From Halogeometricum borinquense DSM 11551 (GTDB lineage Archaea; Halobacteriota; Halobacteria; Halobacteriales; Haloferacaceae), in assembly GCF_000172995.2 (NCBI RefSeq), contig NC_014729.1, forward strand, positions 1,860,001-1,892,000: a stretch of 32,000 bases of DNA, written 5' to 3'. Every line of letters begins with the position of its first letter. Within the stretch, counting starts at the first letter, position 1. Made by a program: the position numbers and the translations under genes. Shown here piece by piece: positions 4,681 to 30,895 of this stretch. The notes under the pieces are model-generated. The model ran no database searches. It was given only the letters and a program-made list of their open reading frames with translations, and was not told the origin of the DNA.

Positions 4681-4971
4681 ATGGTCGTTTTCCTCACCCG
4701 GTCTGATCAGTCCGAATCGGATGGGTTCCACCCCAAAACGGCACGAAACCACTATGTGTTCGGCATCATCGGACTCGGAATCACGATTCTCTCCGTCTTT
4801 CTCACGTACTCGCTTCTCGTCGGGATTGTGAGCCTTGTTCCACTCCTCTCAACGACGGCCATCGCTTTCGTCGGCGTCGTGACGTGGGTCGTGGTGTGGC
4901 TACTGCTCGACCTCGCCTACGAACACTACGTCCGCCAGCGGTCCACGAGTAGCGAGACGTATCCCGAATGA
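4681..4971 (+). CDS. Small hypothetical membrane protein (2-3 TM)
   Basis: ATG at 4681 (the ORF-track start at 4621 is a GTG). Hydrophobic core: YVFGIIGLGITILSVFLTYSLLVGIVSLVPLLSTTAIAFVGVVTWVVVWLLL. No recognisable family. Confidence 0.45.
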   Translation: MVVFLTRSDQSESDGFHPKTARNHYVFGIIGLGITILSVFLTYSLLVGIVSLVPLLSTTAIAFVGVVTWVVVWLLLDLAYEHYVRQRSTSSETYPE

Positions 4972-5891: not shown

Positions 5892-6070
5892 ATGCGGTCG
5901 GACGGTCCAACTGTCCGCTAAACCGAATATTCTCATTACTCTTGATTTCGGCGTATCAGGCCTTGAGACGCAATAATAACCATTATGGCCGTCCGGAAAT
6001 GGTATTCAGTTGAACGGCTATTCCATCCGTGAACTCGCGGCGTTGTTCGCGGGCGGAGCCTGCAGGTGGG

Positions 6071-6079
6071 TATATAAAA
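6071..6079 (+). promoter_or_regulatory. TATA-like box (TATATAAAA)
   Basis: tatataaaa at 6071-6079, upstream of the HalOD1 ORF. It argues against ATG 6081 and for ATG 6144 as the start. Confidence 0.3.
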
Positions 6080-6143
6080 GATGGGACGGACTACGTCAGC
6101 AACGACAAAACGTTGCACAGATATTGTATCGAACCCGGAACGA

Positions 6144-6365
6144 ATGACGGTCGAAATCGTCTCCCTTGTCACGGATGTAAAAGGGTGTCAACCGATGGAC
6201 CTCGAACCGCTCTCGAACGTTACGGATCCGGATGCACTGGAAAACTTGATTCGAGAAACGGCGGCAGGCGAGTTCGAGATCGGATTTGACTACGAAGGCG
6301 GACGGCTCTCAATTTCGTCGGATGGAACTATCGAGTTCGACCTGTCTGTGGACCGCTCGACCTAA
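6144..6365 (+). CDS. Stand-alone HalOD1 (halobacterial output domain 1) protein
   Basis: MTVEIVSLVTDVKGCQPMDLEPLSNVTDPDALENLIRE...FEIGFDYEGGRLSISSDGTIEF: the characteristic HalOD1 pattern (xxELPPLyxxvDPDALdxLf ... F.y.g..v.v). The ORF is open from 6081. Confidence 0.7.
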   Translation: MTVEIVSLVTDVKGCQPMDLEPLSNVTDPDALENLIRETAAGEFEIGFDYEGGRLSISSDGTIEFDLSVDRST

Positions 6366-6486
6366 CGTTTCGTCCTGACTGATTCTGTTCGGACGTTCAC
6401 AAAGGATATCGAACGCTGAACGCACAGTTTGCGGAGTGCGCTGCGACCGAGCAGTTTCTTCGTCCCTGCGCTATTGGGACGGTGAT

Positions 6487-6888
6487 CTACGGCTCATAAT
6501 GGCTGACGTGCTCCGGTTTGATCGAGATCATTACGCGTTCGGTCTGGATGGGGTTGGGATACTCGTCTTTCCCCATATACCGCTTTGACATCTCGTCGAT
6601 CTGCTCGCGTGCGCCTTCTGTGGTCATCTCGTCAACCTCTCCCTGAACTGAAAGCATCCGGTAGGGATTGTCCGGATCTGTCATACTGATGGCGACTCGC
6701 GGGTCGTTTCGGATGTTTTTCTCTTTTCGGCGGCCGCGTTCGGTGTTCACTAACAGCCGGTCCGCGTCGACGTCGTAATCGATCCACACTGGCGTCACGT
6801 GTGGGCTTCCATCCGGCAACAGCGTCGATAGATGCGCAAATGTCTGTTTCTCGAACAAATCTTGGAAGTCTGCCGGGATTGATGCCAT
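6487..6888 (-). CDS. Pyridoxamine 5'-phosphate oxidase (PPOX) family / F420-dependent-like protein
   Basis: 133 aa. FAHLSTLLPDGSPHVTPVWIDYD...LLVNTERGRRKEKNIRNDPRVAISMTDPDNPYRMLSVQGEV. Confidence 0.8.
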   Translation of the reverse strand: MASIPADFQDLFEKQTFAHLSTLLPDGSPHVTPVWIDYDVDADRLLVNTERGRRKEKNIRNDPRVAISMTDPDNPYRMLSVQGEVDEMTTEGAREQIDEMSKRYMGKDEYPNPIQTERVMISIKPEHVSHYEP

Positions 6889-7103
6889 AGTGAATATAGG
6901 TGTGAAAGCTACTAATACGCACTTACAGCATTCTGGTAACTACATTCGGGGTTGGATTCGTGGGAGGATCTATTTCGTTCGCAGAGTATTATTTTCTCGA
7001 CGGTTTGGTGCCCATCTTCTCTGTTTACTCGATCCGAACACACGCGACGCGGTACTTGTCAGTCGTAGTTTCGGAGTCGTATAAGGCGGAGAGGTTGTGA
7101 ATT

Positions 7104-7187
7104 ACGGTCGGAGCAAGCTCCTCTCTAGCTCAACTCCTCCTTGTGAACGTCATACTGAACTCACGCGGTACGCGAGCGACAGAGCGC
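7104..7187 (+). repeat. Left direct repeat (attL-like)
   Basis: acggtcggagcaagctcctctctagctcaactcctccttgtgaacgtcatactgaactcacgcGgtacgcgagcgacagagcgc. It matches 10212-10295 except G/T at one position. It is preceded by a degenerate copy (7086-7103) of the tRNA-3'-like stub seen at 10190-10211. Confidence 0.9.
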
Positions 7188-7211
7188 GGACGCTTTCGGA
7201 GTTGGTGCATC

Positions 7212-7511
7212 GTGAGTCTGCTCGACCGACTTCATGAGGAGTACGAGTCCGATGGTTCGCTCGTCCTGTTCCGCTGTACCGAGTGTGGACAGACAGCGAT
7301 GAGTCTCGGTTCACTTCACGCGCACTGCGAGCAGCACCGCGGCTACACGCGCTTTGGTTTCCAGATACCGTTCACGAGAACCTCACCAGCGAACTTTGAT
7401 CAGCTCATGGAGTTAACGGAGGTACTGCGAGTTGAGGAGACGTCCACGATTTCGCTCGCGGACGTGGAGGGGTTGCAGAATACCAAACCGTACGTTTCAT
7501 TCGCGGGCTGA
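7212..7511 (+). CDS. Small C2H2 zinc-finger protein
   Basis: FRCTECGQTAMSLGSLHAHCEQH fits F-x-C-x2-C-x12-H-x3-H, including the conserved Leu. The ORF is open from 7143 (inside the repeat). GTG 7212 (VSLLDRLHEE) is the likelier start, but this is uncertain. Confidence 0.55.
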   Translation: MSLLDRLHEEYESDGSLVLFRCTECGQTAMSLGSLHAHCEQHRGYTRFGFQIPFTRTSPANFDQLMELTEVLRVEETSTISLADVEGLQNTKPYVSFAG

Positions 7512-7657
7512 TCAGGCTCCATTTTCAACGACTATATCAACCCTCAATATAGATACGACAAATAGATATTATTCCATATTCACTAACCAATGTTAATTGA
7601 TTTCATTTCGGTATTTATTTATCCTGACATTTAGTCATCTAGTTGGTACTCTGATAT
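7512..7657 (+). promoter_or_regulatory. Strongly AT-rich intergenic/promoter region in front of the four-gene cassette
   Basis: About one-third G+C by eye. Contains several TATA-like strings (tatttattta at 7612-7621, catttag at 7628-7634) 25-45 nt before ATG 7658. Confidence 0.35.
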
Positions 7658-8113
7658 ATGAGTGATCTAACGAGAAGAAATGTGCTGAGTATTATGGGAA
7701 CAACCGGACTCCTGACGATGGGCACTGGAATCGGTGCTGCGAAGCCCGACACCTATCCTACCGTTGACGATCTCGGTCCCTTCGAAGACATGACGGTCGA
7801 TCAAATGGCTGCTGGTGCTGCGAAACATCCTAATCAGGACCGTATCGCTATCGTCACCGCAGCGTTTGGTGACGGCATTCAGCTCTACATCGCAGACGGC
7901 ACTCGAAATCTCAGTGACACGCCCGAGACAGTCTACCAGATCACCCAGGACGCTGTGGCTGGCGTGTACGAGCCAGAGTGGAAAGACGGGAATCGGCTCG
8001 AATACGTCATGGACTTCACGCGATACACGCGGAAGATAACCCCATCGTACGTTGTTCTGGATCACAAAACTGTGACGGAGAATGTCCTTGACGAAGAGGA
8101 GGGGGATGACTAA
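7658..8113 (+). CDS. Tat-secreted hypothetical protein (151 aa)
   Basis: MSDLTRRNVLSIMGTTGLLTMGTGIGAAKP is a twin-arginine signal. The mature part is acidic with a C-terminal EEEGDD. No family recognised. Confidence 0.65.
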   Translation: MSDLTRRNVLSIMGTTGLLTMGTGIGAAKPDTYPTVDDLGPFEDMTVDQMAAGAAKHPNQDRIAIVTAAFGDGIQLYIADGTRNLSDTPETVYQITQDAVAGVYEPEWKDGNRLEYVMDFTRYTRKITPSYVVLDHKTVTENVLDEEEGDD

Positions 8114-8595
8114 TGGCGTCTCTCCCATTCCCCGTTCCGAGTGGATTCCCTTTCGACCTGTGTACACCAACCCCCAATGGAACACAACTGTGCGTTCAGA
8201 CCGGCAGTATTCAAGAGAACATTGGCGAACCGCGAGACTGTAACGATGGTCAGACTCCCCCACTTGTCTCAGTCGATCTAACCTACCAGGAGAAGACTAT
8301 CTCACTCGGTGACGCTGAGGTACTCGTCGAGAATTCCATATGGATCGGTATCGAAGAGGACCTGAATGCAGTGTGGGTGGGTGAACCGAAGAGTGGCTCC
8401 TGCTACCGCCATAACTTGAATAATATTGATCCTACCGCTGCTCTCGATACTGTACTTAAGAAGGCGGGGGATGCAGCAGACGCCAGTGTCAGAGACCTTG
8501 GTATGAACCCCAACAGCGGCCCTGGCCAAGTCTTGGCACTAATCATCATGGTGGTTCTATTCCTCATAGCTGACGGGGCCCCAGATCCGGTTTGA
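8113..8595 (+). CDS. Hypothetical Cys-containing protein with a C-terminal TM anchor (160 aa)
   Basis: The start overlaps the upstream stop (TAATG at 8111-8115). Contains 4 Cys. The C-terminal hydrophobic segment VLALIIMVVLFLIA is followed by DGAPDPV. No N-terminal signal peptide is seen. Confidence 0.55.
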   Translation: MASLPFPVPSGFPFDLCTPTPNGTQLCVQTGSIQENIGEPRDCNDGQTPPLVSVDLTYQEKTISLGDAEVLVENSIWIGIEEDLNAVWVGEPKSGSCYRHNLNNIDPTAALDTVLKKAGDAADASVRDLGMNPNSGPGQVLALIIMVVLFLIADGAPDPV

Positions 8596-8642
8596 GATCT
8601 GGAGCATAGGCTTTAGATATATTCACAGCTATTTTACATTCA

Positions 8643-8960
8643 ATGGCACTGCTTCGAAATCTCAAGCCAAAAGAAATTGGTGGGTTGATTCTCGCATTGT
8701 TCGGACTGTTACTTTTGCTCTTGGGATCGAACTCACTACTGATGCAAAGTACACTGGTGTTTCTAGGGTTGGTAGGCTTCGCATCGCTACTGGACTTGCC
8801 GTTTCCTCGGCACCATCTTCTTGCCCCTCTGTCACTGGGGGCAGTGGCTTTCGCTATCGTCTCATACCTTCAAGTGGGACTTACTGTGGGGGGAACGGCA
8901 ATCGCTATCCTTGGGATCGCCATTGCATTCATGTATGGACGGAGACAGGAGTTCCTATGA
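8643..8960 (+). CDS. Hypothetical small membrane protein (105 aa, about 3 TM)
   Basis: IGGLILALFGLLLLLLG / LVFLGLVGFASLL / LSLGAVAFAIVSYL...AILGIAIAFMY. A hand-counted 60-nt sample at the 5' end is 43% GC. Confidence 0.6.
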   Translation: MALLRNLKPKEIGGLILALFGLLLLLLGSNSLLMQSTLVFLGLVGFASLLDLPFPRHHLLAPLSLGAVAFAIVSYLQVGLTVGGTAIAILGIAIAFMYGRRQEFL

Positions 8961-9367
8961 CATCGTATCCAGATACTGGATCACGATGGTGGTACGGTGT
9001 TGCGCTCCAGTTGGTAGTCGTAGGAGCGGTCTGGATTGCGTGGGGGACGGTTTGGTTGCTCGGTGTCGAAAGTGCCGGTACCCCTCCGTCGCTCCTGCCT
9101 GCTAACGACGCTGTTGAGATTCCATTTCTCCTAGCGAGTGTCTCCACGGTGTTGTTGATCTTTGCACACTACGTCTTGACACCTGTCTTCAGTATGGGCT
9201 TGTATCTCGACAGCAAGCACGTATCTGCGAACAATGGTGGCAGGTCCCTATTTCGATGGATGTACGCGGCGGTGAGCGTGATACATTTGCTCTCGTTGCT
9301 CCTGCCGGTGATCCAATTCGTGACGCTTCCCGCAGGCGGAGTGTACTTAATTAACAGACACAAATGA
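8957..9367 (+). CDS. Hypothetical small membrane protein (136 aa, about 4 TM)
   Basis: ATGA start/stop overlap with the preceding gene (8957-8960). Hydrophobic segments: WWYGVALQLVVVGAVWIAWGTVWLLGV, FLLASVSTVLLIFAHYVLTPVF, MYAAVSVIHLLSLLLPVIQFV. Confidence 0.6.
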   Translation: MTSYPDTGSRWWYGVALQLVVVGAVWIAWGTVWLLGVESAGTPPSLLPANDAVEIPFLLASVSTVLLIFAHYVLTPVFSMGLYLDSKHVSANNGGRSLFRWMYAAVSVIHLLSLLLPVIQFVTLPAGGVYLINRHK

Positions 9368-17295: not shown

Positions 17296-17500
17296 ACCTA
17301 CTTCCCCGTGTAAAAAAAGCGATTACGCTGTATAAGAATTGGGCCGCAACGTATAACTCCCCTCAGTTACCAACCTTTGACAGAAATCGATGAGGATCAG
17401 GAACGCGAACGTTCACGATGAACTGAATAAGGGGTATCTTGATATGGCCCCGTGTTTCATTCGATGACGTGCGTGTTTCCGCAACACCACAACAATACAA

Positions 17501-18103
17501 ATGAGTGCTGACCAGCCGCTCGTGCTCATCGTGGAAGATGAGCCGGACCTCGCCGACCTGTACGCAACCTGGCTCAGGGAGAAATGTCGCGTTCGCGTCG
17601 CATACGGTGGCCGCGAGGCCCTCGACGAACTCGACGACGACGTCGATGTCGTTCTCCTCGACCGCCGGATGCCGGATCTCTCCGGAGACGAAGCCCTCAC
17701 AGAGATACGGAACCGGGGATTCGAATGTCGTGTCGCCATGGTAACAGCTGTCGAACCGGATTTCGACATCGTAGCCATGGGATTCGACGACTATCTCGTA
17801 AAGCCAGTCTCCAAAGAAGCCCTCGAAGAGACCGTCGAAAACCTCCTCCGACGAAACACATACAACGACGGCGTCCAAGAACTGTTCTCGCTTGCCTCGA
17901 AGAAAGCACTGTTGGAGTCCGAGAAGGACCCTGCGACCTTAGAGGACAACGAGGAGTATCAGGAACTCGACGCGCGCCTCTCGAAGCTTCGCGAGGACTT
18001 AGACGAGACTCTCCAACAGTTCGACGAAGAACGGGATATTGCCGCCGTCTACCGGGATCTCGGCGACACCTCTGCCTTCGAGAATCTCGAGAGTTCTGAG
18101 TAA
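17501..18103 (+). CDS. Response regulator (receiver domain) with a C-terminal HalX domain
   Basis: LVLIVEDEPDLADLY...VVLLDRRMPDLSGDE (phospho-acceptor Asp)...DYLVKP, then a coiled helical tail NTYNDGVQELFSLASKKALLESEK...EYQELDARLSKLREDLDE typical of HalX. Confidence 0.85.
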   Translation: MSADQPLVLIVEDEPDLADLYATWLREKCRVRVAYGGREALDELDDDVDVVLLDRRMPDLSGDEALTEIRNRGFECRVAMVTAVEPDFDIVAMGFDDYLVKPVSKEALEETVENLLRRNTYNDGVQELFSLASKKALLESEKDPATLEDNEEYQELDARLSKLREDLDETLQQFDEERDIAAVYRDLGDTSAFENLESSE

Positions 18104-18301
18104 CGAACAGAAATCGATCTGCTTCGACTGAATGACCCGTAGTGACGACGTTCGTCACGTGTGACTAGTCTAACGGACAGTATACCCCGTGTGAAGCGAC
18201 CACAACGTTTATTTGTAAGAAATTATATCTAAATTGAGTTAATTTCATGTTAGATCTTCTAGAAAAAATTAATCTATCTGGGCGTTCTGTGTTCATACGT
18301 C

Positions 18302-18445
18302 ATGTCCGAAACTGACACGAACGCGGTCGCACAGTACCTTGCCGAACACCCCCGCATGATGGGCGTCCTGTTCACGATGCTGCTGCTGCTCTCACAAGCA
18401 GGTTCAGTCGCAGCGGGAAACAACGCCGGTATCTACGGTCCGTAA
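18302..18445 (+). CDS. 47-aa micro-protein: one hydrophobic segment (signal-peptide-like) plus a 9-aa tail
   Basis: Below the ORF-track cutoff. MSETDTNAVAQYLAEHPRMMGVLFTMLLLLSQAGSVAAGNNAGIYGP. An AT-rich TATA-like string (aaaaaattaatc, 18263-18274) lies about 30 nt upstream. I recall similar small haloarchaeal ORFs, but this is unverified. Confidence 0.5.
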   Translation: MSETDTNAVAQYLAEHPRMMGVLFTMLLLLSQAGSVAAGNNAGIYGP

Positions 18446-18449
18446 ATAC

Positions 18450-20612
18450 TCAAAGACTATCTAAGTCCAGATCGTCACTCCACTGAAGTTGACCATTTAC
18501 GAGTAATGGGATGTTTTCCAGATCCAAGAAGTCATTTAGTTCCTCTAAACTGAGTGTAAACGAATCAACCGAACCGGAACCGAGATAATGAGTCTCGACA
18601 CTCGGAAGCAACGGTATTACGAGCCCACACATTCCAACGTGGCTTCCCGGATATACACGATAATCTACATTGAAACCCTCTGTTGTCCGGGTGATGACAC
18701 ACGTGTTAGGATATAAACCGTCACTCTGCGCAACTGCGAGTCCACCGTCACCGAGGACAATATAGCTGTCACCGACGGCGTTCTCACCGCGGACAAGTCC
18801 AAGTGCACTACGAATCGGAAATCCTTGATTCAGCAACCGAGCAAGCATCGAGCCGACCTCTACGGCACTACTGTTCACAACATCTTCGAGCGTGACGATA
18901 CCGGCGATAGCACCCGCGTTGATCAGGTGCATCCCCTGTTCGTACGACCGGCAGGCGTTGAGTAAGAAGGCGTCCATCCCTACATCGGACAGTGTCGAGG
19001 CGTCCAACGTCCCGTCGGAACACTGGAATCCGTCGTTGTCGATGTGGCCGATGTAGTGGAAGAAGTCCGTCTGTGTGGCGAGGGCCTCGCGGAGTTCGTC
19101 TTTCGTCAGTTCGTACTGGACTTGCACGTCGAACGGAAGCTTTTCGCGCGACCCGTACACCGCTTCTACGTCCTCGCGCTCGTCTGCCATCCGCGGGTCG
19201 TTGCAGACGACGGTGATACCGATATCACCCTCCGTCGGCGACCGATACAGACGATTGCGGTACGCTTGCAGGGATGCTTTGCTCGCCCCGATGGGCGTCC
19301 CGTCACCCAACCACGCCTGCTCGAGCGAATCCGTTTTCTCGGGTTGGACGTAGCTTCGTTCGGGTAACGATGCAGACTGCGTCGCGCTCCGCGTAAACCC
19401 GGCGTTGGGGGTCTGCGGCGACGACCGCAGGAAGGCATCGACTGCCTCCGCCTGTGTCGTCGAACCCGCCGACGGTTTCGTGTGTGGCGTCCGAACGATT
19501 GCCAAGTCGTTTGCAACGAACGGAAGCAGTTCGACGTTCCCCGGCGTCGGCGTCACGTGCGTCGTGAGTTTCCACTCGGGAACGTGCCCGGCGACCGTCT
19601 CGTACGGAACCTGTAGGTAGGCTTCGACCTGTTCGGCCGTGGGTCGGTCGTACAACGCGGCAAAGTCGAGATCAAGGTCCGATTCGACCGCTTGCCGTTC
19701 GTGCAACTCGACCTGATAGTAGCCTTCCGTTCGAGTGAGACAGTCGAGGAAGAACGTCTGCTTCAGAACGCGCTCGACTTCCCGCTCGTACCCCGCGGTT
19801 GTATCGAGGTCGTATGTGAATCCGCTGTCAGTGCGAAGTCGCGGCGTGTCGCCTTCCACGACGGTTGCACCGAGATAGTACGCTAACGGTGCCGCCACGT
19901 ACACGTGCCGATACGTCGCCGGCAGTTCGAGCGTGATGCCCGTCTCCGGCGGTGCCAAATCTGGCGGTGCTTTGAACTGCTCGCCGCGTTCGATAAGCGG
20001 CGGATGCCCGCGGAGTGTGGGATACGAGCGTTCGGGCGACGTCGATTTCAATGCGGACCCGAGAAGCGACACCGCGCGCATCATCGAACGCGGGTCGTCG
20101 GGTGTCGTTATCGTCGCTGCCGGTCGCTTGTGGTGTGACCGCGCACCGACGAGAACCTCCGTTTCCTCGTCGAACGAGATGGTCGTCTGCGTCGCATCGG
20201 AAGTTATCGTCACCGGTGCGTTGACGCGTACGTACGTCTTCACCGGGGCGAACAGTTCGAGACTGTACGTCGCGCGCGGGAACGACTCCGAGGCGAAGTG
20301 TTCGGTCTGGCCGAGCATCTGTCCCTCGTCGTCGCGGATGCAAACTGAGACGACCGTCTGGAGTTCGAGCTGATCCGTTTGGAAGCGAACTGCGGCGTCA
20401 GCGGGGAACCAGAACGCACTCGGGTCGGTGGGTTCCGGGTCGATCACCGAAGGTGTCGAAAGTTCGAACTGATGACGCTCTATCGGGTCGGTAACCACGA
20501 CTCCGTCACCCCCGGATGCGGCGTCGAGCGAGAGTTCGAGATACGTCTCTGAACTATCAAATGACGGCGAACTCTCAGAATCCCCGAACCCTTCCATCAT
20601 CTTTTCAGTCAC
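18450..20612 (-). CDS. 720-aa protein: unknown N-terminal ~460 aa plus a C-terminal CHAT (caspase-like cysteine protease) domain
   Basis: GITVVCNDPRMADEREDVEAVYG...LTKDELREALATQTDFFHYIGH(523)IDNDG...GMDAFLLNAC(554)RSYEQG...AGAIAGIVTLEDVVNSSAVEVGSMLARLLNQGFPIRSALGLVR follows the CHAT consensus. His codon at 19044-19046, Cys codon at 18951-18953. Confidence 0.75.
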   Translation of the reverse strand: MTEKMMEGFGDSESSPSFDSSETYLELSLDAASGGDGVVVTDPIERHQFELSTPSVIDPEPTDPSAFWFPADAAVRFQTDQLELQTVVSVCIRDDEGQMLGQTEHFASESFPRATYSLELFAPVKTYVRVNAPVTITSDATQTTISFDEETEVLVGARSHHKRPAATITTPDDPRSMMRAVSLLGSALKSTSPERSYPTLRGHPPLIERGEQFKAPPDLAPPETGITLELPATYRHVYVAAPLAYYLGATVVEGDTPRLRTDSGFTYDLDTTAGYEREVERVLKQTFFLDCLTRTEGYYQVELHERQAVESDLDLDFAALYDRPTAEQVEAYLQVPYETVAGHVPEWKLTTHVTPTPGNVELLPFVANDLAIVRTPHTKPSAGSTTQAEAVDAFLRSSPQTPNAGFTRSATQSASLPERSYVQPEKTDSLEQAWLGDGTPIGASKASLQAYRNRLYRSPTEGDIGITVVCNDPRMADEREDVEAVYGSREKLPFDVQVQYELTKDELREALATQTDFFHYIGHIDNDGFQCSDGTLDASTLSDVGMDAFLLNACRSYEQGMHLINAGAIAGIVTLEDVVNSSAVEVGSMLARLLNQGFPIRSALGLVRGENAVGDSYIVLGDGGLAVAQSDGLYPNTCVITRTTEGFNVDYRVYPGSHVGMCGLVIPLLPSVETHYLGSGSVDSFTLSLEELNDFLDLENIPLLVNGQLQWSDDLDLDSL

Positions 20613-20669
20613 GGTTCACGACTAAAAGCGTGTTGGTAGTTGACAAGTGTCAAATTTGAATAATTTTGG

Positions 20670-21413
20670 TCATCCCAGAACGAGCCAATCTGAAGTTATA
20701 TTGGCATCGCGGAAGTGCCATCGTTGTTGTAGTTCCGTCCCATCCAATCGGAGTTCAACGGTCGCATCAAACAATGGCTCAAGAACGAGTGCAGCGTTAT
20801 CGTCTTTCTCACGCGGAAGCCAGAAGTGAACCATCCCGTTGACAGTACGAACGTGGTTTGCGAGAATATGTGAGAACTGAAACGCTGTTTCGAGATCGTA
20901 CTCCGCGAGAAGAACCGGTAAGCAGTCGAATGCGAGACGAAGCTCCGCAGGAGTCATTCCGCCGGCGATGCTCTCAAACTGCTCTATGATCTTCGTAATC
21001 TCTCGACCGAGTGCGATAATGTCACCATCGACGCGTTGAGCCAACGCGTTCCGCGTGGCCTCTGCGTCCATCGCAGTTTCGAGGTCGGGCGAGGAAATCG
21101 TCGGATTGCTCGCGCTAACCGCCGCAGTGCTCCGGGCAGTCGTCTCGAATTCGATGATACGAGTCCATTCGGGCGTTTGACGCCGAATGGCGTCCAGGCG
21201 GGAGTCCTGCTTACCGTCGGAAACTCCTGTCACGAGAAGGCGGCGTCGCAACTCTCCATCACCGAGCATCCGCGCCGAAGCACGTCGGTATACCTCTGCC
21301 GGAACCGAGCCGACGACAAGAAGTGCGCTTCCACGCTGTTTCAGGTTGTCGAGGGCCGAAGCGAGTTCCGGGGCATCCGACTGGACGGTGTTAGCCCCGT
21401 CTCCCTGATCCAT
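20670..21413 (-). CDS. Haloarchaeal RecA/KaiC-like fold protein lacking a Walker A P-loop (function unknown)
   Basis: 247 aa from MDQGDG. A TATA-like aaagtattattt lies 27-38 nt upstream on the minus strand. GSALLVVGSVPAEV occupies the position of a P-loop but has no GK[ST]. The C-terminal ...ELRLAFDCLPVLLAEYDLETAFQFSHILANHVRTVNGMVHFWLP...LFDATVELRL resembles halobacterial degenerate KaiC-like paralogues. This assignment is from memory. Confidence 0.55.
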   Translation of the reverse strand: MDQGDGANTVQSDAPELASALDNLKQRGSALLVVGSVPAEVYRRASARMLGDGELRRRLLVTGVSDGKQDSRLDAIRRQTPEWTRIIEFETTARSTAAVSASNPTISSPDLETAMDAEATRNALAQRVDGDIIALGREITKIIEQFESIAGGMTPAELRLAFDCLPVLLAEYDLETAFQFSHILANHVRTVNGMVHFWLPREKDDNAALVLEPLFDATVELRLDGTELQQRWHFRDANITSDWLVLG

Positions 21414-21626
21414 TCGTATGTATTCACGGCACCACACCAAATAATACTTTGTGTATCTGATGGGTCTTGTATCTAGAGTATTCGCAACGGCGAAATATGT
21501 CGTTTGGAGAGAACGAACGGCGTTCGTGAGACGAATCGTGGTCTTCTCTGAGTATCACTGTAGATAGTGTCCTATACACGAGTAACCGTCGTCTTCGGCG
21601 GTTGCACTGACATCGTCGACCGACGA

Positions 21627-28957: not shown

Positions 28958-29098
28958 ATGTGGGTGAACTCGAGAGACACGGTTGAAATATCTGTGTTCT
29001 AATGATACCAATCGAATAGGTATGGATTCGAGACTGTTCCTTGCATCCACCGACGTATTGGAAAAGACACAATAGGCGTGCGAACACCAACTCTGTCG

Positions 29099-30895
29099 AT
29101 GGCCCTCTCTGACGTCTTTCTCACCCCGCTGGGATTCGCCGCCCTTGCCGCCGCGATTCCCATCCTCATTCTGTATCTGGTTCGCCCCGATCCGCGGCGG
29201 ATTCAGTTCCCGACGTACCAGTTCCTCACAGAGGACCAACGAGAGAACGAGTCGAACCCGGTATTCGAACGACTCAAACGAAGTACGCTGTTGCTGTTGC
29301 AACTGCTGGTGATTCTCCTGCTCGCCACGGCGCTGTCCACGCCGTACGTGTCTACTTCGCAGTCCGAAACCGTCGAGGAGACGGTCTTAGTCGTGGATGC
29401 AAGCGCCAGCATGAACGTTCAGTCCGACGGCGGGACGCGATTCTCGCGTGCTGTCTCCGAGGCGCAGGATGCCGTCACCGGCACTACCTCTATCGTCGTC
29501 GCCGGTGCGGAGCCACGTGTCGAACTCCGGAGCGGGCCGGCGGACGATGCGAAGTCGGTTCTCACGGGTCTGTCGCCCACTGACGCACCCGGTGATTTAC
29601 GCTCGGCCATCTCTACAGCGGCATCTATCGCGGGTGAAGGATCCCGAATCGTCGTCGTAAGCGACTTCGCCGATGACAGTGCGTGGCGGGACGCGGTCCG
29701 CGTTGCCCGCGCTCGCGGTCTGTCGGTCGAACTCCGCCAGTTCAATGGCGGCGGGGCAGGCAACGTTGGTATCGTCAGCCGGTCGTTTTCGGGCACCGAG
29801 GTGACGGTGTCGCTGAAGAACTACGGCAACGATTCCGTGACGCGAAGCGTCTCGCTCGGCGGCACACAGAAGTCGCTGTCGCTCGGCCCGGGCGACGTTC
29901 GTTCGGTGACGTTCCAGATTCCGGCGAGCGGCGGGACGGTCACACTTTCGCCCGGCGATGACTTCCCGACGGACGACACCGCTTCGGTCGCCGCACCGCC
30001 GGACGCCGTCGTGGACGTTCTCGTCGTGACGAACGACGAGAACAACTACCTCACGACCGCGCTCTCGGTCATCGATAGCGTCAAACTCACGGTGAAGAAC
30101 CCGCCGACGCCGACGGACGGCAACTACGACGTGGTCGTCTACTCGAACGTGGAGGGCGAACGACTCCTCGCGGGCAACCTGCAGGCGGGACGTGACGCAA
30201 TCAAGAACGGCGGCGGCGTCGTGATTCAGGCGCAGTCACCCATGCCGAAGCGGTACGACGATCTGCTTTTGCTCTCCCCCAACGGAACGGGGACGAACCC
30301 GACGCTCACCTCGCCCGCAAAGACGGAACTGATGCGGAACATCAACTTCCCACCGCCGGAGCTGTACCTCCAAGGCGAACTCCGCGAGGGGAAGGCGCTC
30401 TTGAAAACGGCAGATGGTACGCCGATGATCGCAACCGCCCAGCGCGGTTCCGGCCAGATACTCTACTACGGCTACATCGAGTCGGACTCGTCGTTCAAGT
30501 ACAACTACCAGTATCCGGTGTTCTGGAAGCGCGCTGTCTACGACCTCGCCGGACGGCCGCCGCTCTCGGCGTTGAACGAGCAGACCGGCACGCGCCTGTC
30601 GTTCGAGAACGAGACGAGCATTACGACGCCCGAGGGTGCGGTCACCGCGTCGTCTGTCCGTCTCGACGATTCCGGGTTCTACGAAGTTGACGGCACGCGA
30701 TACAGCGCGTCGCTGTTGAGTGAATCCGAGTCCGCCGTCGTCGCGTCCGACATCGGCGCCACAGATAACGAGAGCGTGGCGTCGCGCGAGGAAGAGAAAA
30801 CCGCTCCGGACCCGCTGACCGAATGGGTCGCACTCGCCGCTATCGGTGGCGTCGTCCTCGAAGTCGCCTACCTCCGCCGACGAGGTGATCTCTAA
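29099..30895 (+). CDS. BatA-like membrane protein: N-terminal double-TM aerotolerance-regulator-type domain plus VWA domain plus C-terminal TM
   Basis: FLTPLGFAALAAAIPILILYLVRPDPRRIQFPTYQFL (BatA N-terminal motif). VLVVDASASM (DxSxS MIDAS). C-terminal EWVALAAIGGVVLEVAYLRRRG. ATG 29099 is preferred to GTG 29078. Confidence 0.8.
   Translation: MALSDVFLTPLGFAALAAAIPILILYLVRPDPRRIQFPTYQFLTEDQRENESNPVFERLKRSTLLLLQLLVILLLATALSTPYVSTSQSETVEETVLVVDASASMNVQSDGGTRFSRAVSEAQDAVTGTTSIVVAGAEPRVELRSGPADDAKSVLTGLSPTDAPGDLRSAISTAASIAGEGSRIVVVSDFADDSAWRDAVRVARARGLSVELRQFNGGGAGNVGIVSRSFSGTEVTVSLKNYGNDSVTRSVSLGGTQKSLSLGPGDVRSVTFQIPASGGTVTLSPGDDFPTDDTASVAAPPDAVVDVLVVTNDENNYLTTALSVIDSVKLTVKNPPTPTDGNYDVVVYSNVEGERLLAGNLQAGRDAIKNGGGVVIQAQSPMPKRYDDLLLLSPNGTGTNPTLTSPAKTELMRNINFPPPELYLQGELREGKALLKTADGTPMIATAQRGSGQILYYGYIESDSSFKYNYQYPVFWKRAVYDLAGRPPLSALNEQTGTRLSFENETSITTPEGAVTASSVRLDDSGFYEVDGTRYSASLLSESESAVVASDIGATDNESVASREEEKTAPDPLTEWVALAAIGGVVLEVAYLRRRGDL

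Follow-up and report, generated by a model that had tools for sequence, protein, structure and literature searches.

A haloarchaeal CHAT-family protease and a convergent 47-residue DUF7503 microprotein share a hypervariable cassette and may form a protease-peptide system

The locus described here lies in a 32,000-nucleotide (nt) stretch of DNA from the haloarchaeon Halogeometricum borinquense DSM 11551 (NC_014729.1, positions 1,860,001 to 1,892,000), called the window below; coordinates refer to the window unless another locus is named. Three genes meet there: a gene for a cysteine protease of the CHAT family (clan CD, caspase fold) on the minus strand at 18450-20612, a gene for a KaiC/RecA-like protein of family DUF7504 on the same strand and 57 nt away (20670-21413), and a gene for a 47-residue microprotein of family DUF7503 on the plus strand at 18302-18445, tail to tail with the protease gene. 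A previous sequence-only reading had noticed the first two, as a candidate two-gene module, and both open reading frames (ORFs) were recovered just as it gave them. The protease ORF counts 720 residues from a GTG codon; its true start is probably the ATG at 20600, because close relatives (e.g., P0003) begin there. The protein is acidic and contains neither a hydrophobic or transmembrane segment nor a signal peptide; being acidic and free of hydrophobic segments, it is taken to be cytoplasmic. More than 1800 homologues are known, all haloarchaeal and 53-90% identical, and a profile search of 1.84 billion representative proteins matched 903 clusters, those listed being essentially full-length. 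As judged from these sequences, the family is compact and class-specific. RNA sequencing (RNA-seq) contigs from four runs (one sample of one study on the same organism, without strand information) cover the protease, DUF7504 and DUF7503 genes and bridge their junction, one contig spanning 18278-21266. The protease and DUF7504 genes are thus confirmed as real and conserved.

The AlphaFold2 model of the protease, built from 35 homologues, has a mean predicted local distance difference test score (pLDDT) of 66.7 and falls into four parts: a confident N-terminal domain (residues ~25-345, pLDDT mostly 85-95), a disordered linker (346-448), an α/β domain of moderate confidence (~449-625) and a small, poorly modeled C-terminal domain. 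The α/β domain (18738-19268, minus strand) is CHAT/caspase-like and catalytic. Foldseek ranks the SAVED-CHAT structure 8tl0 first (E 1.4e-7), followed by separase, gingipain, MALT1, caspase-3/7, DdvA and the Craspase TPR-CHAT protein. VIA-align, an independent all-against-all comparison, aligns residues 446-624 with DdvA (Z 15.0, root mean square deviation 2.6, 157 residues), separase (5fc2, Z 14.2), SAVED-CHAT (Z 13.5) and Csx29 (Z 13.3); legumain (Z 9.1) and OaAEP1 (5h0i, Z 8.9) are matched as well. In the ESM Atlas, a CHAT cluster matches the model at a TM-score of 0.59. Model strands 515-521 and 546-552 precede His523 (HYIGH, codon 19044-19046) and Cys554 (LLNAC, codon 18951-18953), which is the His/Cys layout of clan CD, and His519, Gly522, His523, Asn552 and Cys554 are invariant among 35 homologues from many genera. 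Structure and the invariant dyad therefore bear out the caspase fold and catalytic residues that the sequence-only reading had proposed. Profile searches give no such support. Pfam CHAT (PF12770) scores 14.2 bits (E 0.03), below its gathering cut-off of 24, and reaches E ≤ 0.01 in just 7 of 35 family members; NCBIfam profiles yield no match for the protease, and PDB sequence profiles yield non-significant ones only (GspG pseudopilins at residues 612-673, E 0.24-0.5; glycerol-1-phosphate dehydrogenase, E 1). On the evidence of the models, the family is a divergent branch of CHAT, recognized mainly by structure.

The N-terminal domain (residues 25-345; 19578-20540, minus strand), delimited by the AlphaFold2 model and its invariant columns, carries the strongest conserved motifs of the entire protein, with RSYPTLRGHPP and KQTFFLDCLTRTEGYY invariant. 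It had been called an orphan, and this description holds: its look-alikes in the structure search are limited to archaeal hypothetical-protein clusters. The best PDB match, from whole-model searches dominated by the CHAT domain, covers residues 26-165 only (Z 7.8) and is a generic β-sandwich.

The two-gene module, in contrast, does not describe the locus well, since the tightest-linked partner of the protease is the convergent gene at 18302-18445. Its product matches Pfam DUF7503 with E 1.2e-23 (82.9 bits against a cut-off of 27), and public contigs of three distant genera carry a DUF7503 gene of 44-47 codons on the opposite strand, right after the protease gene. Among 80 protease loci surveyed, one genome per species, a canonical DUF7503 gene is convergent with and abuts the protease gene in 71, in many families. 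The stop codons lie a median of 0 nt apart, with exactly 0 nt between them in 26 loci and a 4-nt overlap of the genes in 9. The tail-to-tail abutment persists across families while other neighbors change. At the nine loci without the canonical gene, this position is taken in five (three Haloplanus, two Halococcus) by divergent small ORFs that also end in Gly-Pro; a further locus has a canonical tail that is partly N-masked, and in the last three the sequence is masked, truncated or interrupted by a contig end. The pair is also duplicated as a unit: where a genome encodes two or three protease paralogues, each is accompanied by a DUF7503 gene, and genome G029 has three tail-to-tail pairs. Conversely, DUF7503 occurs in none of 20 Halobacteria genomes without the protease (at least 9 genera, completeness 94-99%) and in 8 of 10 genomes that encode it, the two exceptions holding only distant protease paralogues (Fisher p ~8e-6, with the reservation that related genomes are not independent).

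The DUF7503 product consists of an acidic N-terminus, the motif YLxxHPR, a hydrophobic stretch ending in SQAG, the segment [NST][VA]AA[GA]N, a variable uncharged core and an invariant C-terminal Gly-Pro. Written in full, the consensus is M-S-[ED]-x(3-8)-Y-L-x-[EDQ]-[HN]-P-[RK]-M-x-G-[VA]-L-F-T-x-x-L-L-L-[ST]-Q-A-G-[NST]-[VA]-A-A-[GA]-N-x5-G-P-stop. Variability is concentrated in about five residues ahead of Gly-Pro, which are nearly devoid of charge. The hydrophobic stretch is the only one and lies close to the C-terminus; its sequence would fit either a tail anchor or a signal peptide whose A-x-A-like site directly precedes the variable core.

The ends of the two convergent genes form a single recombining hypervariable cassette (18420-18890), comprising the last 8 DUF7503 codons, a 4-nt spacer and the last ~146 protease codons. 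When the window is compared with H. borinquense strain L095 over 17340-21540, the DNA is 95-100% identical save at 18420-18890, where identity is 49-80%; these 470 bp are the sole diverged stretch between the two strains. The protease sequences are 99% identical over residues 1-600 and 45% from residue 600 onward, and the DUF7503 products share 40 identical residues before ending in NNAGIYGP in the window and NHVGISGP in L095. The variable protease part, residues ~575-720 (18453-18890, minus strand), consists of the last helices of the catalytic domain plus a small β-rich C-terminal domain. In this C-region, the window protease resembles that of H. rufum (67%; tail NNTGIYGP) more than its conspecific, and the L095 protease is closest to that of H. 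luteum (65%; tail identical). The allele classes of the cassette thus cross species. A similar dip is seen between Haloferax gibbonsii and H. prahovense, H. larsenii and H. elongans, Haloarcula amylolytica and H. vallismortis, and two other Halogeometricum species, and in independent genera the borders of the variable block match the ends of the conserved parts of both genes. DUF7504 lies outside the cassette.

Divergence of the protease C-region follows the state of the peptide tail at close range. Among close pairs from several genera (N-region distance < 0.14), the C-region diverges 2.3 to more than 100 times as much as the N-region wherever the tails differ (C-region distance 0.15-0.56), while pairs with identical tails have C-region distances of at most 0.08, matching the N-region, with one exception at 0.26. 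The variable part is also poor in GC: 0.486 in the window protease against 0.612 in the rest of the gene, and 9-20 points below the rest of the gene in 8 of 8 genomes checked. This low-GC segment accounts for the GC dip of the window at 18001-19000. Comparison of two Haloarcula species (L082 and L087) reveals two more strongly diverged stretches, at locus positions 4800-4920 and 7380-7800, with identities of 21-28% and 55-76%; one is situated immediately upstream of the protease gene and the other past the small gene.

The divergent small ORFs of Haloplanus and Halococcus show which part of the microprotein is retained when the rest changes. In three Haloplanus loci the N-terminus is kept (MS-x-RDS... 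or MSE-DS) without a hydrophobic stretch, and is followed by 2, 6 or ~14 tandem units of 13 residues, ADGN(G/S)G(A/G)(V/I)SGP(Y/F)T, the last of which ends in GP beside the protease stop codon. The arrays have a 39-nt period and lie at 7095-7600 of locus L031 (~14 copies), 7074-7297 of L038 (6) and 3747-3962 of L027 (2); Tandem Repeats Finder reports the same period, with 5.7 copies and 98% matches in L038 and 13 copies and 83% in L031. Copy number therefore varies among species of the genus. Haloplanus halobius has a canonical single-copy DUF7503 whose tail, GNSGAISGP, matches the unit, so that the repeated unit is the tail itself. Two Halococcus loci contain another form without the hydrophobic stretch, ...GVTD-VSGASACTYSGP. 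The tail is thus the part kept and amplified, as is typical of precursors of small processed peptides, which often carry short units in tandem. In Haloplanus and Halococcus the putative precursor must be cytoplasmic, like the protease. Each Haloplanus unit is preceded by T-A-D, which aligns with the [VT]-A-A of canonical forms. An Asp at this predicted site would fit the habits of caspase-fold enzymes, which cut Asp-containing sites.

The third gene (20670-21413, minus strand) encodes 247 residues from the ATG at 21413, and the open frame continues upstream to a TTG at 21440. The start at 21413 is supported by a 99%-identical database protein that is also 247 residues long, and RNA-seq contigs ending at 21401-21405 are consistent with it. 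Pfam assigns the product to DUF7504 (E 4.7e-54, 184 bits against a cut-off of 27); chance matches only were returned by NCBIfam profiles (RecX) and PDB sequence profiles (coiled coils). Its AlphaFold2 model (pLDDT 84.5, predicted TM-score 0.81) has a KaiC/RecA fold: a fold search matches KaiC CI (E 1.4e-6), and structural alignment of residues 14-247 gives PH0284 (Z 15.9), SSO2452 (Z 15.6) and KaiC (Z 15.2), followed by KaiC CI (Z 14.3), ArlH/FlaH (Z 13.3) and RAD51 paralogues. At the position of the P-loop, the strand 29-34 is followed by S-V-P and the helix 39-50; this stretch, GSALLVVGSVPAEV, is conserved in 30 homologues, and the Walker A motif GxxxxGK[ST] occurs in 0 of 120. The fold matches and the missing motif agree with what the sequence-only reading had said of this protein. 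Because S-V-P replaces the Walker A loop and none of the 120 homologues has GK[ST] there, DUF7504 is unlikely to bind ATP in the usual way. It is probably a non-catalytic accessory subunit.

The association of DUF7504 with the protease is looser than that of DUF7503. The pairing that had been anticipated stands in 55 of 80 loci (50 co-directional, 5 divergent) and fails in 25, including all Haloarcula and Halococcus loci, where no DUF7504 gene was found up to 5 kb from that of the protease. Loci with the association fall on either side of the midpoint root of the protease tree. Co-folding the protease with DUF7504 gave an interface score (ipSAE) of 0.41 (runs 0.38, 0.41 and 0.44) against 0.01 for the best of three controls; the runs share at least 51% of contacts and the pLDDT of the partner is at least 74. 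Of 80 solved complexes, 58 reach the mark applied, as do 2 of 110 mismatched pairs, and values of 0.60 or below are seen in just 7 of the 80 solved complexes and in both mismatches that pass. The modeled complex therefore lends weak support to a contact between the two proteins. Six DUF7504 paralogues are found in the H. borinquense genome, among them those at L007 (C2:228600-232127) and L009 (C2:246450-249941). One paralogue is divergent to a second HalX response regulator gene and stands beside a gene for a 441-residue coiled-coil protein, and another adjoins a gene of the RdfA (rod-determining factor) family; these positions hint at a functional tie of the DUF7504 family to HalX regulators and genes for cell shape. 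Its place by the RdfA gene also raised the possibility that DUF7504 is the Haloferax disk-determining factor DdfA, which was rejected because DdfA carries a HalOD1 domain (PMC10869688).

Across the class the protease family is nearly universal, with members in 277 of the 301 Halobacteria genomes sampled and in 72 of 80 genera; frequently there are 2-4 copies. A second paralogue in the H. borinquense genome (L013, C1:1289145-1290623) is 31% identical and retains HYIGH and LNAC; its final ~100 residues appear degenerate or out of frame, and no DUF7503-like gene was found beside it. The window neighbors of the three genes are IMP dehydrogenase (IMPDH), a TrmB regulator, a HalX response regulator, DUF218 and transport genes, and the block of IMPDH, TrmB and HalX is kept throughout Haloferacaceae (37 of 80 loci). 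This conserved setting, with no PADLOC defense family for the protease or DUF7504 and no relative of the protease found among IMG/VR viral contigs, does not match the defense cassette among unrelated genes that had been suggested. Nor does the locus context contain SAVED, TPR, gRAMP, cyclase or sigma-factor genes. The HalX-type response regulator gene (17501-18103, plus strand; Pfam Response_reg and HalX) adjoins DUF7503 in 37 of 80 loci, all within the Haloferacaceae clade, and may be part of the protease circuit. RNA-seq contigs cover it to 18200 and resume at 18278, 24 nt before the DUF7503 ATG. The AT-rich intergenic stretch between them, 18201-18277, is the sole part of 17400-21400 left uncovered in the two best runs, and contigs of both runs start exactly at 18278.

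Other features of the neighborhood vary. In Halalkalicoccus jeotgali (L001, 3186-5041), a gene of the exosortase/archaeosortase family (Exosortase_EpsH) and one for a PGF-CTERM protein lie just upstream of a divergent DUF7504 gene. A BatA/von Willebrand factor A protein gene with DUF7406, DUF7407 and DUF7408 is located at 29078-30895 of the window, and as it is also near the locus in Haloplanus and Haloferax, the synteny is conserved over a long range. At 6001-9000 the GC content is 0.51-0.52 against ~0.60 on either side; an ORF within this stretch (7667-8263, minus strand) has no Pfam match, and the stretch may be a foreign or variable island. In Haloferax volcanii, HVO_1268 is DUF7504, HVO_1269 takes the position of the protease, HVO_1270 is DUF7503 and HVO_1271 is the HalX regulator; proteome tables include HVO_1268 and HVO_1271 and lack HVO_1269 and HVO_1270 (PMC10869688, supplements). 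In the H. volcanii assembly GCA_033550185.1 (L005, 8747-10889), a frameshift near codon 278 splits the protease ORF, for which the annotation has no gene, and another genome labeled H. volcanii encodes an intact protease of 709 residues.

The reading that we prefer, with a probability of about 0.5, is that the protease binds or processes the DUF7503 tail via its variable C-terminal region. The locus would then represent a lineage-wide haloarchaeal system of a protease and a micro-precursor peptide, in which a cytoplasmic CHAT protease with the dyad His523/Cys554 acts on, or is governed by, the 47-residue DUF7503 product. The functional part of that product would be its short uncharged C-terminal peptide, roughly [GA]-N-x5-G-P, and this peptide would be recognized by the ~146 variable C-terminal residues of the enzyme. 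If cleavage occurs, the likeliest cut is at the junction before the variable core, [VT]-A-[AD] | [GA]-N, or just past the Asn, which would free a peptide of 7-9 residues ending in Gly-Pro. As the two specificity segments would lie back to back on the DNA, they could be inherited and swapped as one cassette, giving strain-specific enzyme/peptide pairs. DUF7504, KaiC-like and without a P-loop, would serve as an accessory non-ATPase subunit of the protease in many lineages, and in Haloferacaceae the HalX response regulator would be a possible output or input. That a released peptide acts as a signal or kin marker is only about half as probable as the recognition itself. A bolder form of the proposal, in which a CHAT protease throughout Halobacteria matures, and perhaps cyclizes, an uncharged peptide of 7-13 residues ending in Gly-Pro, with cassette-exchanged specificity groups as an archaeal counterpart of pherotype signaling or kin discrimination, is tentative.

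Several observations weigh against recognition and processing of the tail. The only basic residue of canonical DUF7503 precedes the hydrophobic stretch, so that the tail should face outward, away from a cytoplasmic protease. The residue at P1 would be Ala, Gly or Asn in canonical DUF7503, an atypical cleavage site; such P1 residues are unusual in clan CD, legumains (Asn) excepted. Conservation of the hydrophobic stretch goes far beyond that of ordinary signal peptides and suggests that the stretch itself has a function. Being convergent, the protease and DUF7503 genes cannot be co-transcribed and form no operon. The co-variation of tail and C-region at close range could reflect mere physical linkage in one recombination block, and over the whole class it is weak: a partial Mantel test of tail against C-region, given the N-region, is not significant for 71 loci (r 0.07, p 0.10), a depth at which the tails are saturated.

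The main alternative is rather unlikely: DUF7503 would be a tether or pseudosubstrate, a tail-anchored membrane microprotein or, in some genera, a soluble one, which docks or inhibits the protease as securin does separase. The substrates would then lie elsewhere, and the variability would stem from an arms race, e.g., with viruses directed at the exposed tail or imitating the inhibitor. Such a role would suit a microprotein with one hydrophobic segment close to its C-terminus, in which this stretch and YLxxHPR are, unlike ordinary leaders, strongly conserved class-wide. Separase and the anti-sigma factor DdvA, which are among the best fold matches of the enzyme, are governed by bound partners, and the low GC and allele replacement of the variable region are common for conflict-driven loci. 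Haloplanus and Halococcus, however, dispense with the hydrophobic segment and keep or multiply the tail, which argues that the tail, not the anchor, is indispensable; moreover, neither defense-system matches nor viral copies were found, and near-universal vertical inheritance is unlike that of accessory conflict genes. The conflict theme recurs in the two-gene defense module, in which an inactive KaiC-like sensor would switch on a CHAT effector and DUF7503 would be an unrelated neighbor. CHAT proteases serve as effectors in known defense systems, as the fold matches 8tl0, 7zoq and 7y84 recall, and both folds are confirmed here; in 55 of 80 loci DUF7504 neighbors the protease gene, these loci having either of two orientations and lying to both sides of the midpoint root, and the co-fold passes weakly. 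We nevertheless consider this module improbable, because the family lacks a PADLOC match and is present in 277 of 301 genomes, with housekeeping synteny, because DUF7503 stays in the 25 loci where DUF7504 is not within 5 kb, and because DUF7504 lies outside the cassette while DUF7503 is duplicated and lost together with the protease.

A further account, that the three genes are neighbors by descent and the variable block is a hot spot of recombination or mutation at gene ends, draws on the wider synteny of IMPDH, TrmB and HalX, which is confined to one family and clearly inherited, and on the non-significant class-wide correlation. It is very improbable: the abutment of protease and DUF7503 is kept across families while other neighbors change, every paralogue retains its own small gene, both are absent together in all 20 protease-lacking genomes tested, and in independent genera the block borders coincide with the ends of the conserved parts. 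A specific role of the tail peptide as the quorum signal for Haloferax disk formation was also considered and is unlikely, as that signal resists proteinase K and the authors favor a non-peptide small molecule (10.1101/2025.01.14.633064); QarABC is encoded by HVO_1356-1358, a different locus.

Known systems resemble parts of this arrangement. SAVED-CHAT (CBASS/type III CRISPR), Csx29/TPR-CHAT (type III-E Craspase) and DdvA share the caspase/hemoglobinase fold and the His-Cys dyad, and in all of them, as in the haloarchaeal protein, the protease is joined to large controlling non-catalytic regions. In contrast to the CHAT defense systems, the haloarchaeal protease is near-universal and vertically inherited in one archaeal class, has an orphan N-terminal domain, and has as its constant partner a 47-residue gene product rather than a nucleotide sensor. 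Separase is also of CHAT type, and its small partner securin occupies the substrate site as a pseudosubstrate. Securin, however, is not membrane-associated, the archaeal locus has no link to chromosome segregation genes, and we know of no cassette-wise co-variation of securin with separase. DUF7504 shares its fold over its full length with PH0284, SSO2452, ArlH/FlaH and KaiC CI, and differs in lacking Walker A.

The nearest analogues, by proposed function and by anatomy, are peptide loci. In staphylococcal agrB/agrD/agrC and Bacillus comQXP, a precursor of ~46 residues is encoded next to a cysteine peptidase that trims it, and a sharp-bordered hypervariable block covers the peptide core and part of the neighboring gene or genes, defining strain-specific groups. 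The haloarchaeal locus has matching features: a small precursor gene with a variable core linked to a peptidase gene, and joint hypervariability of that core and part of the enzyme, the latter with class-wide statistics that are not significant. There is no homology to these loci: AgrB is an integral membrane peptidase of another fold, whereas the haloarchaeal enzyme is soluble and caspase-like; the haloarchaeal genes are convergent, no receptor kinase is linked to them, and secretion and sensing of the peptide are hypothetical. Plant cyclotide/kalata-type precursors (butelase/OaAEP1) and multi-copy ribosomally synthesized and post-translationally modified peptides carry tandem short cores between constant recognition residues, as in Haloplanus. 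The asparaginyl endopeptidases belong to the same clan CD as the haloarchaeal protease, and Gly is the first residue of the Haloplanus units, with Asp/Asn at their boundaries. Unlike the C13 legumains, the haloarchaeal enzyme is of CHAT type, and most of its putative precursors are single-copy and end naturally in Gly-Pro. Cyclization of the haloarchaeal peptide is pure speculation.

The families themselves appear to be uncharacterized: the literature searched contains no paper that mentions DUF7503 or DUF7504 or that links "CHAT domain" to Haloferax, and it describes no comparable archaeal system. Caspase-like activity has been reported in Haloferax, and archaeal genomes are said to "lack clear homologues" of caspases (PMC3615174). 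A caspase-fold family in about nine of ten Halobacteria genomes provides concrete genes for this question and could be the missing gene behind haloarchaeal "caspase-like" activities, subject to the state of HVO_1269 in the laboratory strain. To our knowledge, archaea offer hardly any examples of peptide communication or of peptide products made by dedicated proteases. The cassette and the multi-copy precursors lead to a testable prediction, namely a GN...GP peptide and its allele-specific recognition. The locus also carries a lesson on microproteins, as the key partner is a 47-codon gene that went unseen at first reading, and its convergent zero spacing may keep co-adapted variable segments linked. 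If the proposal is true, the pairs of variable domain and peptide would be natural orthogonal modules of protease-peptide recognition for high salt.

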